The notes beneath the pieces were generated by a model. That model was not told the DNA's origin. It was given only the letters and a program-made list of their open reading frames with translations, and made no database searches. From assembly GCA_003141835.1 (NCBI GenBank), contig PLNR01000011.1, positions 107,804-171,803 on the forward strand: a DNA stretch of 64,000 nt, in the 5' to 3' direction. Made by a program: the position numbers and the translations under genes. Positions within the stretch are counted from its first letter, which is position 1; the number at the start of each line of letters is the position of its first letter. This DNA is from Candidatus Omnitrophota bacterium. Its GTDB lineage: Bacteria; Omnitrophota; Gorgyraeia; Pluralincolimonadales; Pluralincolimonadaceae. Shown in pieces: positions 9,783 to 64,000 of the stretch.

Positions 9783-10768
9783 ACCGGCCTCCTTAGCATA
9801 TTTTGCGCCCTTAGCCCGTCACAAAAAGACCGGAGCGTGACAGGCTCGTAATATCTTTTTACCTTATCCAGAATATCCCTGAACATCTCCTCTTTTCTTT
9901 CCAGGCCAAGGCGGAAGCCCGGGTGGTTAAGGGATAATTTATCGCTTCCGGAGGAGAGCATGTCCGTCGAATGGAAGTTATAATTGAGGTTCCCTCCCCG
10001 TGCCCTCGTGGACCAGAGGCCGAAGTCAAACAGCCCGGGGCCCATTAGAAATAAAAATGTGGTATTGAACGGCATCCCAAGGAACGGAACTACGCTCAGC
10101 GGCACTTCCAGGATCTTCCTGCCGGCACTTTTCCGCCAGAACCTGCCCTGGCTCGGCGTATACGGCTCCATCGGCGAAAAAATCGAATAAAAAACCTCAG
10201 CCGGCAGGTTTTTAAAGATACGGGATTTAGGGACCTCGTCCAGGTTTACATAACTGGCCCTCCTCATGAGGGGATATGCGGGAAACTTATAGAGCGAGGA
10301 ATCATAGGAATATCCCATCCTGTCCAGTATCTCTATAGTCTCCTCATCCACATCGTATCCCGGGACACGGAATCCCACCGGCGCCTCCCCGCAAGTATCC
10401 TTTATGAGCTGCGTAGACTCGGCGATGTCCTTATACTTCTCGCTCTTTGGCATGAGCGAAAAAGCAAATCTATGGTCCAAACTGTGGTTTGCTACCTCAT
10501 GGCCCTTTAATATGATCTCCCTGACGGCTTTTTGGGTGGCCGGCTTGCGGCAATCACTCGCCACGACAAAGAAAGTGGCTTTTATGCCTCGCTCGTCGAA
10601 TAACTTCAGGAACCTCGGCACAGCCAACTCGTACACGGGATCCTTGCCGTTAAAGCCACTCTCCTTCTTGCCGTAGAACTTAAGCACTGAGTCGATCGAA
10701 TCAACGTCTACCGATATAGTGCAGCGAGGCGTTTTGTCCGGAGAAACCATTTTATGCTTATGCCCCAT
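9779..10768 (-). CDS. Polysaccharide deacetylase family protein (NodB-homology, ArnD/PgdA-like).
   Basis: GHEVANHSLDH matches the NodB metal-binding motif HE(V/I)xNHS..H. 329 aa. Confidence 0.62.
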   Translation of the reverse strand: MGHKHKMVSPDKTPRCTISVDVDSIDSVLKFYGKKESGFNGKDPVYELAVPRFLKLFDERGIKATFFVVASDCRKPATQKAVREIILKGHEVANHSLDHRFAFSLMPKSEKYKDIAESTQLIKDTCGEAPVGFRVPGYDVDEETIEILDRMGYSYDSSLYKFPAYPLMRRASYVNLDEVPKSRIFKNLPAEVFYSIFSPMEPYTPSQGRFWRKSAGRKILEVPLSVVPFLGMPFNTTFLFLMGPGLFDFGLWSTRARGGNLNYNFHSTDMLSSGSDKLSLNHPGFRLGLERKEEMFRDILDKVKRYYEPVTLRSFCDGLRAQNMLRRPV

Positions 10769-60259: not shown

Positions 60260-61543
60260 TTAGCCTATCTTGTTTATTACCAGGCCTGACGGGGGCTTGG
60301 GATAGAAATACGTGGTCTTGTGGGGCATCCTCTCCTGCCGCTTCACTATATTCTTTATCTCGTCAAATGCCGGAGGGTTAAGGAAGAATGAGGCCCGGCC
60401 GCTGCCCGATGATGCCCATTTGAACGCCGTCGCAAGATCCCTCGTGAACGATATCATCTTCTCCGCCTTCTCCCCTTTTATGCCCAGCGCCTTCTCGAAG
60501 ACGAGATGGTGCAATATCACTACGTCGAGGTTCCTCCAGTAATCGGAGTTGGCCGACTTTATCAGCCCGCCGGCGTCCCTGCGCTTCAGCGAGAGGCAGA
60601 GGAACTTCCTGCCGCCGAGATATACGCCTATGGTATGCTTCCTGTCCGCCTTCATCCTGGCGAGCATCTTCTCTTTACTGTTAACGTGTATTATATCAAA
60701 AAACTTTTCGATCTTACTGAGATTTTTTCGGAACGTCCCCGCGGGAAGCCCTTCCACCATCCGGTGCGTAGGGAGTATCGTCATGCCTGAGGGGTCTGAG
60801 GTCGCGAAATACATCATCACGTAATTGGCGGCAGGGCCTGATGCTCTATCATGCTCAAGCATGTATTTCCTGTATTCGAGGGAGACTTCGTAGCGGTGGT
60901 GCCCGTCGGCGATCAACGCGCGTTTGGCTTTGACGGACCTTTGCAGCCTTTTTATCGTCGCCGCGTCAGGCATAAGCCAGATCCTGTTCCTCGTCCCCTC
61001 GAACCTGACATCGACCGACGGTTTCTTGTTCCTTATGAAACCCCTCAGGATGTTTATTACTTTTTTATTCTCATCGATCACTATGGAAAATATCGGGCTG
61101 AGGTTCGCGCCGGTCTCTTTCATGAGCCTGAGCCTGTCGAGTTTCGGGCCCCTGAAAGTGCGCTCGTGGGGGAGGAACCCCTTCGTCCGGTCTTCCTCCA
61201 GCCTTGCCAGTGAGATAAAACCGAGGCGGTGCTTTTTCTTCCCGCCGTCAGTATATTCCTGGTCATAAACATAGACCGAATCCCGGGCGTCACGGACCAG
61301 GACTTCTTTATCTATACATTCCTCCAGGAAATCCCCGGCTCTCGTATATCTGTTGTTGCCCTTATTGTCCTTGGGAAGGGTCTTGCCGAGGTCCAGTCTT
61401 ATGAAGTTGTAAGGATGGGTTTTATAATACGACGCCTGCTGCCTCTTGTTTATGACGTCATAAGGTGGGGTTATGGCCTTGGAGAGATCGCCCACCGTTT
61501 TAGCATTATACCTGTAGCCTCTGAAGGGTTTGATTATCGTCAT
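60260..61543 (-). CDS. DUF1015-family protein.
   Basis: N-terminus IKPFRGYRYN…ITPPYDVI is characteristic of DUF1015. 427 aa. Confidence 0.65.
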   Translation of the reverse strand: MTIIKPFRGYRYNAKTVGDLSKAITPPYDVINKRQQASYYKTHPYNFIRLDLGKTLPKDNKGNNRYTRAGDFLEECIDKEVLVRDARDSVYVYDQEYTDGGKKKHRLGFISLARLEEDRTKGFLPHERTFRGPKLDRLRLMKETGANLSPIFSIVIDENKKVINILRGFIRNKKPSVDVRFEGTRNRIWLMPDAATIKRLQRSVKAKRALIADGHHRYEVSLEYRKYMLEHDRASGPAANYVMMYFATSDPSGMTILPTHRMVEGLPAGTFRKNLSKIEKFFDIIHVNSKEKMLARMKADRKHTIGVYLGGRKFLCLSLKRRDAGGLIKSANSDYWRNLDVVILHHLVFEKALGIKGEKAEKMISFTRDLATAFKWASSGSGRASFFLNPPAFDEIKNIVKRQERMPHKTTYFYPKPPSGLVINKIG

Positions 61544-61565: not shown

Positions 61566-62723
61566 TCACCTGAAAAAACTCTTTAATTTTCTTATGAATG
61601 ACGCGGAGTTGGGGAAAGTGCTTTCGCCTGATGCGCGGGTGAATTCCTGGAGTATGCGTTTCTGTGCGTCGCTGGTCACGGTAGGCGTCTCGACTATGAC
61701 GCGGACGTGCTCGTCGCCGCGGACGCCGGTATGGATATCTTTTATGCCTTTATCCCGTAACCTGAATATCTTGCCGCTCTGCGTGCCGGACGGGACTTTC
61801 ATCCGGACTTTGCCGTCGAGCGTCGGGACCTCGACCTCTGTCCCGAGAGCCGCGTCGACCATCGTGATGGGGACCTCGCAGAGTACATCGCTGCCGTGGC
61901 GTTCGAATATCTCGTGGGGCCTGACATAGATGAGGACATAAAGGTCTCCGCGCTGCCCGCCGCGCTGCCCTACTTCACCCTCGCCCGCGACGCGCAGCCT
62001 CATCCCGTTCTCGATGCCGGCCGGGATCTTCACCGTTATCTTCCTGTCGACGACTACCCTGCCGCCGCCCCTGCATTTGGGACAGGGTTTTGAGATGGTC
62101 GAGCCTTCGCCGCCGCATTTGTCGCATGCCCGGGAGTAGATCATGAAACCCTGTGAAGATTGCACCTGGCCCGCGCCGCCGCATTTCGAACAGGTAGTCC
62201 TCGAGGAACCGGGCGCCGTGCCTTCTCCCCTGCAGCTCGGGCATACCTCATGGCGGGGTATCACAAAATCTTTTGCCGCGCCGGACGCCGACTCGTTAAA
62301 ATTTATCTCCATGTCGAACTGGAGGTCTGAGCCGCGGCGCCTGCCGCCGGAACTTCGCCTTCCGCCTCCAAAAATGCCGCCGCCGAATATCCCGCCGAGA
62401 AGGTCTTCCAGGTCGACGCCTCCCATACCCATGTCCTCAAATACGCTGGAGAAATCTGCGCCGCGGAATATATCTTCGGAGGTGTAACGCGAATCTATGC
62501 CCGAATGGCCGAACTGGTCGTACTGCGCGCGCTTCTGCGTATCCGACAATACCGCGTAAGCTTCGGAGAGATCCTTGAACTTCTCTTCCGCGGCTTTCTT
62601 GTCGGTCGGGTTCCTGTCCGGATGGTATTTAAGCGCCAGCCTGCGGTAGGCGGTCTTCACCTCATCGGCTGAAGCGCCCTTTTGCACGCCAAGTATTTCA
62701 TAATAATCACGTTTTTCTGGCAT
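61566..62723 (-). CDS. dnaJ: Molecular chaperone DnaJ.
   Basis: J-domain (DYYEILGV…HPDRN), a G/F-rich linker, and four CxxCxGxG zinc-finger repeats. 385 aa. Confidence 0.95.
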
Positions 62724-62733
62724 TTTAAGTATT

Positions 62734-62812
62734 GGGGACGTTCCAATAAAGGGTACACTCCACTTACAGCTATTAATTGCGGAAGTGGGGTGTCCCTTTT
62801 TGGGACGTCCCC
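62734..62812. repeat. Long imperfect inverted repeat (~30-nt arms, 17-nt loop) filling the dnaK-dnaJ intergenic region. Predicted to form a stable RNA/DNA hairpin ending 10 nt before the dnaJ ATG.
   Basis: Left arm GGGGACGTTCCAATAAAGGGTACACTCCACTT and right arm AAGTGGGGTGTCCCTTTTTGGGACGTCCCC are reverse complements with about 4 mismatches or bulges. Confidence 0.6.
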
Positions 62813-62818
62813 TAAATT

Positions 62819-64000
62819 TTACTTTTTCTTCTTATCCTTATCCTCATCCTCGGCGCGGAAATCCGCGTCGATGATGTCGTCTTTCTTGCCGGGACCTTCT
62901 CCCGGGCCTTCAGGTCCAGGGCCGCCTGTCGGGCCGCCCTGCGGTTCTTCGGGCCCTGCCTGCGGACCTGCTCCTTGCCCGCCCGGCTGGCCTTTCTGCT
63001 GGCTCGACTTGTATATCTCTTCAGCCAGTTTATACGATGCCTGCTGGAGGCTCTCCATCGATTTCTTGATGCGGTCGACGTTCTTATCCTTTATCGCCTG
63101 CTTCAAGTCGTTCAAACCGGTCTCGATGTTAGCCCTGTCCTGCTGGCTTACCTTATCGCCGTAATCCTTGAGCGATTTCTCGGTAGAGTAGACGAGGTTA
63201 TCGGCCTGGTTGACGACCTCGACCTCTTCCTTTTTCTTCGTATCTTCGGAAGCGAACTTCTCTGCTTCCTTGACCATCCTGTCGATCTCTTCCTTGGACA
63301 GTTTCTTCGGAGCAGTGATCTTTATCGACTGCTCTTTTCCGGTGCCGACGTCTTTGGCGTTGACGTGCACAATGCCGTTAGCGTCGATATCAAATGTGAC
63401 CTCGATCTTCGGCATGCCCCTCGGGGCCGGCGGTATGCCCATGAGGTCGAATCGCCCGAGTTCGACGTTATCGTTCGCCATCGGACGCTCGCCCTGCAAT
63501 ACGCGGATCGTGACCGACGGCTGGTTATCCTGCGCCGTCGAGAATGTCTGGCTCTGGCGCGTAGGTATGGTCGTGTTCCTCTCTATCAATTTCGTCATTA
63601 CCGAGCCTAAAGTCTCGATGCCCAATGAAAGCGGCGTGACATCGAGAAGTTGTATGTCTTTAATTTCGCCTTTCAACGCGGCGGCCTGTATGGCGGCGCC
63701 CAAAGCGACGCACTCCATCGGGTCGACTCCGCGCTCTATTTTCTTACCGACATAATCCTCTACGAATTTCTGGATTATCGGCATCCTCGTCGGGCCGCCG
63801 ACGAGTATTACCCTGGCGATATCATTCATCGTCAGTTTCGCGTCCTTTACCGCGTTCTCCATCGGTGCGCGGCACCTGTTGACTATCGGGGAGATCAGGT
63901 CCTCGAGTTTCGCGCGCGTTATCGTGTGGGTGAAATGTTTCGGCCCTGACGCGTCGGCAGTGATAAACGGCAGGTTGATGTCGGTCTGCACTGTGCTCGA
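62819..64000 (-). CDS. dnaK: Molecular chaperone DnaK (Hsp70). C-terminal ~390 codons lie in the window; the N-terminus lies beyond the window edge.
   Basis: Substrate-binding and lid-domain sequence (…[22 protein letters not shown]…[15 protein letters not shown]…) and a G/P-rich acidic C-terminus. The ORF is open to the window boundary. Confidence 0.95.

Follow-up and report, generated by a model that had tools for sequence, protein, structure and literature searches.

REPINs are defined as two inverted REP units which, together with a spacer, form a hairpin; they are found as dispersed extragenic copies with compensatory changes in the stem and in company with a REP-flanked RAYT gene (PMC3116915, PMC3337134), and covariation of the two sides of the stem has been described for them (PMC3116915). 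TIRYTs are RAYT-like tyrosine transposases whose terminal inverted repeats share the motif GGGGWSAS (PMC3733652). In the literature that we searched, no paper on a REP or RAYT in the Omnitrophota was found. The intergenic structure between malE and malF of E. coli is reportedly a REP, as Newbury et al. 1987 are said to have found. Among RNA elements, ROSE and fourU are thermometers, and the dnaK-dnaJ spacer of E. coli contains the candidate RNA tpke11. Here we describe a hairpin in the dnaK-dnaJ spacer of a Candidatus Omnitrophota genome that is very likely a REPIN-like doublet, belonging to a multi-copy, dispersed Omnitrophota repeat family with a RAYT-like partner and probably passive in the operon mRNA.

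The stretch of DNA analysed, hereafter the window, is 64 kb long, and the two genes lie on its minus strand. The 3′ part of dnaK (62819..64000, minus strand, running off the window; NCBIfam DnaK E = 4.9e-152) ends with the stop codon TAA at 62821-62819, and dnaJ (61566..62723, minus strand; 385 aa; PRK10767 463.7 bits and TIGR02349 417.8 bits, both above cut-offs) begins with ATG at 62723. The spacer between them (62818-62724, minus strand) is 95 nt long, most of it filled by a 79-nt inverted repeat at 62734-62812 with arms at 62783-62812 and 62734-62765. The initial annotation of this DNA was right that a hairpin fills the spacer, though its figure of 96 nt and its strand needed correcting. 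The stem base stands 6 nt past the dnaK stop codon, after the flank AATTTA (62813..62818, minus strand), and the stem ends 10 nt ahead of the dnaJ ATG, a distance on which the initial annotation agrees with our measurement. The intervening 10-nt A/U-rich leader AATACTTAAA (62724..62733, minus strand) has no Shine-Dalgarno sequence: as had been noted, none is visible for dnaJ, and neither GGAG, GAGG nor AGGA occurs upstream.

Folded as mRNA, the 79-nt element reaches -44.7 kcal/mol with 29 arm-to-arm pairs; its + strand reaches -53.4 kcal/mol with 30 such pairs, two of which are G-U. Adding the flanks gives -46.3 kcal/mol (z = -7.95) for the mRNA strand and -55.0 kcal/mol (z = -9.6) for the + strand, each against 200 shuffles, none of which matched the native stability (0/200). 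When the entire 64-kb window was folded by sliding window, this hairpin ranked first among 100-nt folds on either strand, despite a G+C content of just ~43%. The hairpin of the initial annotation is therefore present where it was placed, as its arms, folds, shuffles and whole-window rank all indicate. The + (antisense) strand of 62734-62812 is ~9 kcal/mol more stable than the mRNA strand, as two A-C mismatches of the latter correspond to G-U pairs in the former. This asymmetry is common to the copies L137, L173 and L108 (L-numbers denote the DNA stretches compared), and is therefore a trait of the repeat subfamily and not a sign of an antisense RNA.

The doublet (62734..62812) consists of two inverted REP units and an inner spacer; either strand folds as one long hairpin, and its recognition rests on these folds, on alignment with copies from other contexts and on the arm profile (E = 9.6e-9). 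REP unit 1, the 5′ arm in the mRNA sense (62786..62812, minus strand), reads GGGGACGTCCC-AAAAA-GGGACACCCCA and matches exactly the 27-nt consensus of the family, GGGGACGTCCC-N5-GGGACACCCYA, which can also be written as the search pattern GGGGACGTCCC-N5-GGGACACCC and in which each arm is an imperfect palindrome. On the + strand this unit forms a hairpin of its own, GGGGTGTCCC-TTTTT-GGGACGTCCC, with 10 pairs (two of them G-T) around a 5-nt loop, a short imperfect palindrome within the 20-40 nt expected of a REP. REP unit 2 (62734..62762, + strand), inverted and forming the 3′ arm in the mRNA sense, reads GGGGACGTTCC-AATAAA-GGGTACACTCCA and is by alignment a degenerate copy, whose GGAACG change recurs in L137, L173 and L108 and whose extra A is also found in L137. 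In the inner spacer (62763..62785) CTT/AAG adds three pairs; the other 17 nt make up the apical region, where there is a weak helix of 2 bp. The inverted units, their 29-30 arm-to-arm pairs and the 23-nt interior give the element the form of a REPIN doublet. Across the arm set, and by the tetranucleotide definition of PMC3733652, the REP unit has no GTAG head; CGTC occurs inside GGGGACGTCCC but is not a terminal tag.

To see how far the repeat extends beyond this locus, the 18-base pattern GGGGACGTCCCNNNNNGGGACAC, a part of the 5′ arm, was used to scan a metagenome collection. It matched at least 120 stretches, in many gene contexts; a few G+C-rich matches look like chance, and most are family members. 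Across 115 distinct arms the bases that the pattern had left free were still conserved (C 87%, C 93%, T/C 97% and also an A), and the five N positions, which form the loop, were variable. Full hairpin doublets with a matching inverted arm account for at least 55 of the matches, with lengths of 57-174 nt and most commonly 78-90 nt, and in 49 of the 55 no open reading frame runs through the element. The stem continues just inside the REP cores with compensatory changes, for example T-A to C-G and A-T to G-C, and the interior of the doublet varies among family members.

Near-identical copies adjoin unrelated genes. L137, L173 and L108 belong to the same subfamily as the window's copy, with the same degenerate 3′ arm, yet have different flanks and neighbouring genes. 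Some contigs hold several copies: five in 46 kb of Ga0209541_10001495 (L125, L155), at least three in the 499-kb contig Ga0180431_10000002 (L123, L136, L154), and multiple separate copies also in L149, L103 and L152. The IMG datasets Ga0156189 and Ga0156064 contain the dnaK-dnaJ copy of a relative with an 85%-identical protein (L127, L165) as well as copies beside other genes (L108; L140; L149 twice), and we infer that these come from the same MAGs. For the source genome itself the scope is the ~73 kb read, which hold one copy and no transposase gene: no second copy turned up in the 64-kb window or in a further ~9 kb of its contig by arm patterns with up to 3 mismatches, an inverted-repeat scan or the arm profile, so that copy number at the level of the family comes from the metagenome stretches. 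A REP-like repeat had been one option of the initial annotation, and the 120 or more stretches and 55 or more doublets in unrelated gene contexts bear it out. The same annotation had held that many copies elsewhere would tell against a dedicated riboregulator, and it is in the metagenome collection that they are found.

Some complete doublets lie inside long ORFs (L149 10127-10197 and 10862-10932, L104 7794-7864, and also L158, L169 and L204); in L149, two identical copies 735 nt apart share one frame that is open for at least 1.6 kb. Family members are apparently tolerated in frame within coding sequence. Heptamer-like runs were also seen after single REP arms in L088, L095 and L180.

Many single arms adjoin an ORF of ~196-207 aa on the other strand. 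Pfam Y1_Tnp matches it with 56.8 bits (cut-off 23), and its best NCBIfam model is the REP-associated tyrosine transposase (REP_Tyr_transpos), at 72.6 bits, below the cut-off of 80. The residues H60, H62 and Y103 (in HLH and NRY) are invariant. Searched against solved structures, a single sequence yielded nothing useful and a profile was needed; built from five proteins, it gave E. coli TnpA-REP (PDB 4ER8) as the best match, over the full length and with E = 1.4e-3, and IS200/IS605 transposases ranked behind. All six complete transposase genes (6/6) are flanked by inverted copies of the repeat, which is the REPtron layout, the upstream copy standing 15-110 nt before the ATG and the downstream copy overlapping the stop codon. 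Homologues fall into 799 clusters of few contigs; those that carry names all come from Omnitrophota and are mostly annotated just as ‘transposase’. By tblastn no transposase gene was found in the window or in the relatives' loci, which is uninformative since such genes are usually single-copy. At the level of sequence, these results identify the predicted autonomous partner of the family as a repeat-flanked Y1/HUH tyrosine transposase, probably of RAYT / TnpA-REP type.

Junctions between dnaK and dnaJ in related genomes were gathered by exact-protein look-up and a scan of a genome collection; the DnaJ homologues that bear names are all Candidatus Omnitrophota. In the closest relatives (DnaJ 93-95% identical: L002, L003, L007, L010) the hairpin is of an unrelated kind, here called type B (CTTGAAATTTAA...TTAAATTTCAAG), and a good Shine-Dalgarno sequence comes after it. 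In a species with 85% identity (L005, L008) the hairpin is clearly homologous to that of the window but has a shorter interior. The spacer of L004 (DnaJ 84% identical; 9997-10003) is 4 nt long, with a GTG start for dnaJ, and a hairpin is therefore not obligatory at this junction. Other palindromes occupy the junction elsewhere: GGGGACGTGTC-type in L011 and L014, AGGGAC(N)GTCCCT-type in L009, L021 and L019, and quite different ones in L022, L015, L020, L029 and L031. The types are intermixed on the DnaJ tree, so that gain, loss or replacement is required. Vertical descent of one hairpin with compensatory drift was considered and rejected, since the spacers of the closest relatives cannot be aligned with that of the window and the types are intermixed on the tree. 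The alignment of relatives' spacers, proposed as a check in the initial annotation, thus went against a conserved device specific to dnaJ, with an unrelated hairpin in the closest relatives and one spacer of only 4 nt. Presence, absence and replacement among close relatives, and copies of one subfamily in different contexts, make up a distribution from which we infer that the element is a non-autonomous mobile element that moves by transposition.

Several features of the other junction palindromes deserve mention in their own right. In the spacers of the more distant Omnitrophota L029 and L031 there are tandem heptamer-like units, such as CAGCCAT/CAGCTTT pairing with GCTGACA/GCTGATA, and similar units occur in L020 (622-734). 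The type B element has 12-nt inverted arms, CTTGAAATCCGG. Between L006 (7737-7833) and L012 (9878-9974) its ~72-nt interior is an exact reverse complement with identical flanks, which reflects either an inversion of the sequence between the arms or a second insertion the other way round. A search of ~1.9 Mb of relatives' loci found type B copies nowhere but at dnaK-dnaJ. A likeness between the loop of the window's hairpin and the type B core was judged coincidental; the window interior aligns better with the REPIN copy L137.

The strongest rival explanation, which is compatible with a REPIN identity, is that a hairpin is selected at the dnaK-dnaJ junction, acting on the DnaK:DnaJ ratio through mRNA decay or on stop-start re-initiation, and that mobile repeats are recruited or retained there. 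We consider this possible, though unlikely. Among relatives with DnaJ at least 64% identical, the spacer fold has z ≤ -5 in 17 of 19 loci and falls into at least five unrelated sequence types, which exceeds the expectation for random insertion. When the 49 spacers of 40-250 nt in those loci are compared, the eight most structured are all dnaK-dnaJ, and the median MFE per nt is -0.43 for dnaK-dnaJ spacers against -0.15 for the others (Mann-Whitney p = 1.6e-7); this comparison is partly circular, however, as the spacers are long only since an element sits in them. All type-A stems begin 3-6 nt past the stop codon, except for 20 nt in L013, and leave 6-10 nt to the start codon. The malE-malF structure provides a precedent for protection by an intergenic structure (PMC5927463). 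Against selection, L004 (4 nt), L027 and L030 (6 nt) and L059 (-1 nt) have no hairpin; some types come with a good Shine-Dalgarno sequence and others without one, so that any effect on translation would not be uniform; and the type B interior is inverted between L006 and L012.

A second site of recurrent palindromes bears on the same question. The variable loop of MiaB directly behind the GQNVNSY motif contains palindromic inserts in frame in many of these genomes (L019 1645-1703 and 1945-2020; L009 2717-2745; L011 ~2783-2828; L014 and L006 in the same loop), and the loop, with a baseline of 17 aa, reaches 64 aa at its longest. In L009, L011, L014 and L019 the miaB insert is of the same repeat family as the genome's own dnaK-dnaJ hairpin. 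The window's own contig carries a different miaB palindrome of 140 nt (L001 2611-2750; DNA fold z = -5.7). Recurrent occupancy of both miaB and dnaK-dnaJ points to insertion hot spots or tolerated sites, and the MiaB loop is a recurrent site that no function related to dnaJ could explain. A stronger form of the rival, in which selection at the junction recruits and swaps REPINs, the invertible type B palindrome and the tandem-heptamer palindromes, amounting to convergent exaptation of mobile DNA, strikes us as rather improbable.

The remaining alternatives assign the hairpin a direct part in expression and depend on its setting in the operon, which in the window's own contig (L001) has the order hrcA-grpE-dnaK-dnaJ. 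A perfect CIRCE operator, TTAGCACTC-N9-GAGTGCTAA with ATCCCAAAA as the N9, lies upstream of hrcA (L001 6321-6347, outside the window). Since CIRCE is present and the HrcA repressor is encoded, the promoter, and not the hairpin, is presumably where heat shock controls the operon. A TTGACA-like box was seen upstream of CIRCE in L001. AGGAG is present ahead of hrcA, grpE and dnaK; dnaJ lacks a Shine-Dalgarno sequence, as do about half of the neighbouring genes. Downstream of dnaJ the window encodes a DUF1015 protein with no NCBIfam match (60260-61543, minus strand), with accD next; in some relatives a small VanZ-like gene lies between dnaJ and the DUF1015 gene.

As dnaK is highly expressed and is followed at once by a very stable stem, the hairpin could in principle be an intrinsic terminator or attenuator at which most transcripts stop once dnaK has been read. 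The mRNA strand, though, has no U run past the stem (AAUACUUAAAAUG), and the only terminator-like call is on the antisense strand, which leaves this reading very unlikely; the initial annotation had itself observed the missing T-run and set a canonical terminator aside.

An RNA thermometer or translational attenuator, whose helix would hide the ribosome-binding region of dnaJ and melt on heat shock, was another option of the initial annotation, which proposed folding at 30 and 42 °C as the check. Its appeal lies in a hairpin that abuts the start codon of a gene without a Shine-Dalgarno sequence in a heat-shock operon. Folding from 10 to 90 °C speaks plainly against it: the 3′ arm has a predicted probability of being unpaired of 0.094 at 30 °C, 0.097 at 42 °C and 0.185 at 90 °C, so that by prediction the helix does not open even at 90 °C. 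Both the AUG and the 10 nt that precede it lie outside the helix, with a predicted accessibility that changes little (0.52 to 0.60). The element is moreover a dispersed repeat that adjoins unrelated genes, the closest relatives are without it, and the operon has its CIRCE operator at the 5′ end. No Rfam family reached its gathering threshold when both strands were searched at a permissive threshold (best ≤ 31.5 bits, against thresholds of 61-98), and the type B spacer likewise matched no family at threshold. The sub-threshold matches, to miRNA-precursor models and the sRNA model NsiR8, were rejected as typical of any long hairpin. We regard a thermometer or attenuator as extremely improbable.

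Hardly more credible is a double operator, in which two GGGACGTCCC-type decamer palindromes ~66 bp apart would bind a dimeric transcription factor controlling dnaJ: GGGACGTCCC is indeed a perfect 10-bp palindrome found in both window arms, in one of them with a single mismatch, but these arms recur in over 100 unrelated contexts and also border a transposase gene, and the closest relatives do not have the motif in their spacers. Nor is a promoter needed inside the operon; the sole promoter-like match is weak and overlaps the dnaJ start.

For the mobile REPIN-like doublet that we favour, the following course of events can be proposed. The transposase would mobilise doublets via single-stranded DNA hairpin intermediates, as has been proposed for other REPIN/RAYT systems, and one copy may have inserted into the short spacer between dnaK and dnaJ, either afresh or in place of a palindrome that was there before. 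Because it sits inside the hrcA-grpE-dnaK-dnaJ operon, the element would be transcribed, giving a predicted temperature-insensitive stem-loop of ~-45 kcal/mol. By analogy with malE-malF (PMC5927463), the transcribed REPIN would most probably be a passive barrier to 3′ exonucleases; blocking their 3′-to-5′ progress would favour the dnaK part of the mRNA, and the stem-loop may uncouple and lower dnaJ expression. A role as a stabiliser or processing element is plausible only as a by-product that any REP hairpin in an operon mRNA might have, and would not amount to a conserved device specific to dnaJ, because the closest relatives carry an unrelated hairpin with a good Shine-Dalgarno sequence and one relative has a spacer of 4 nt. 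REPs within ~15 nt of a stop codon are said to impede terminating ribosomes (a finding attributed to Liang et al. 2015). If this stop-proximal effect holds here, the output of dnaK might be affected as well.

The attractive reading of this hairpin as a thermometer or attenuator of dnaJ is thus replaced by that of a mobile REPIN-type repeat. The finding is ordinary in kind and modestly interesting, both for the REP/RAYT-like system that it defines, with a 27-nt consensus, a doublet form and a transposase, apparently characteristic of the uncultured Candidatus Omnitrophota, and for the hot-spot pattern. It matters for annotation, where such hairpins would otherwise be called riboregulators or terminators, and for the assembly and binning of MAGs, since the repeats are dispersed and multi-copy. 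One operon junction and one MiaB loop, occupied almost universally by changing palindrome families, also offer a test case for selfish versus beneficial REPINs.

Compared with known systems, the element shares with RNA thermometers and tpke11 a location at a heat-shock gene, tpke11 even occupying the same intergenic position; relative to ROSE and fourU thermometers, however, the window's helix is too stable by an order of magnitude and leaves the AUG uncovered. The malE-malF stem-loop of E. coli (PMC5927463) is likewise a stable palindrome between two cistrons of one operon whose upstream product is needed in larger amounts, but a function has been shown for malEFG and is suggested here by analogy, and the window's element nearly touches both the stop and the start codon. 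Rickettsia palindromic elements (RPE) and intragenic REPs (PMC3733652) resemble the in-frame palindromes, of the present family or of sister families, seen here in miaB and other ORFs of these Omnitrophota, whereas the window's copy is intergenic and its sequence family is unrelated to RPE.

TIRtrons and TIRYTs (Di Nocera et al. 2013, PMC3733652) are closer, with a RAYT-like gene between inverted repeats that begin with GGGG and that also form dimers and small families at other places in the genome. The relatives' GGGGACAG (L009, L019, L021) fits the GGGGWSAS motif of the TIRtrons, and the start of the window's arm, GGGGACGT, fails at positions 7-8, the last two. The Omnitrophota family is seemingly far more abundant than the ‘moderately abundant’ TIR families, in a study that covered no Omnitrophota (PMC3733652).

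The closest likeness is to the REPIN/RAYT systems, namely GI-GIII of Pseudomonas fluorescens SBW25 and the REP/BIME elements of E. coli with TnpA-REP (4ER8) (PMC3116915, PMC3337134, PMC3333891). The present family differs from these in its Omnitrophota host, in having no GTAG head and in the copies that lie in frame inside genes, and its transposase is longer than RAYTs (~196-207 aa), falling just below the NCBIfam RAYT cut-off. It agrees with them in its inverted imperfect palindromes with a variable spacer, forming a hairpin of ~60-110 nt, in its dispersed, mostly extragenic copies with compensatory stem changes, and in a Y1/HUH transposase flanked by inverted copies of the repeat, with few contigs per cluster.
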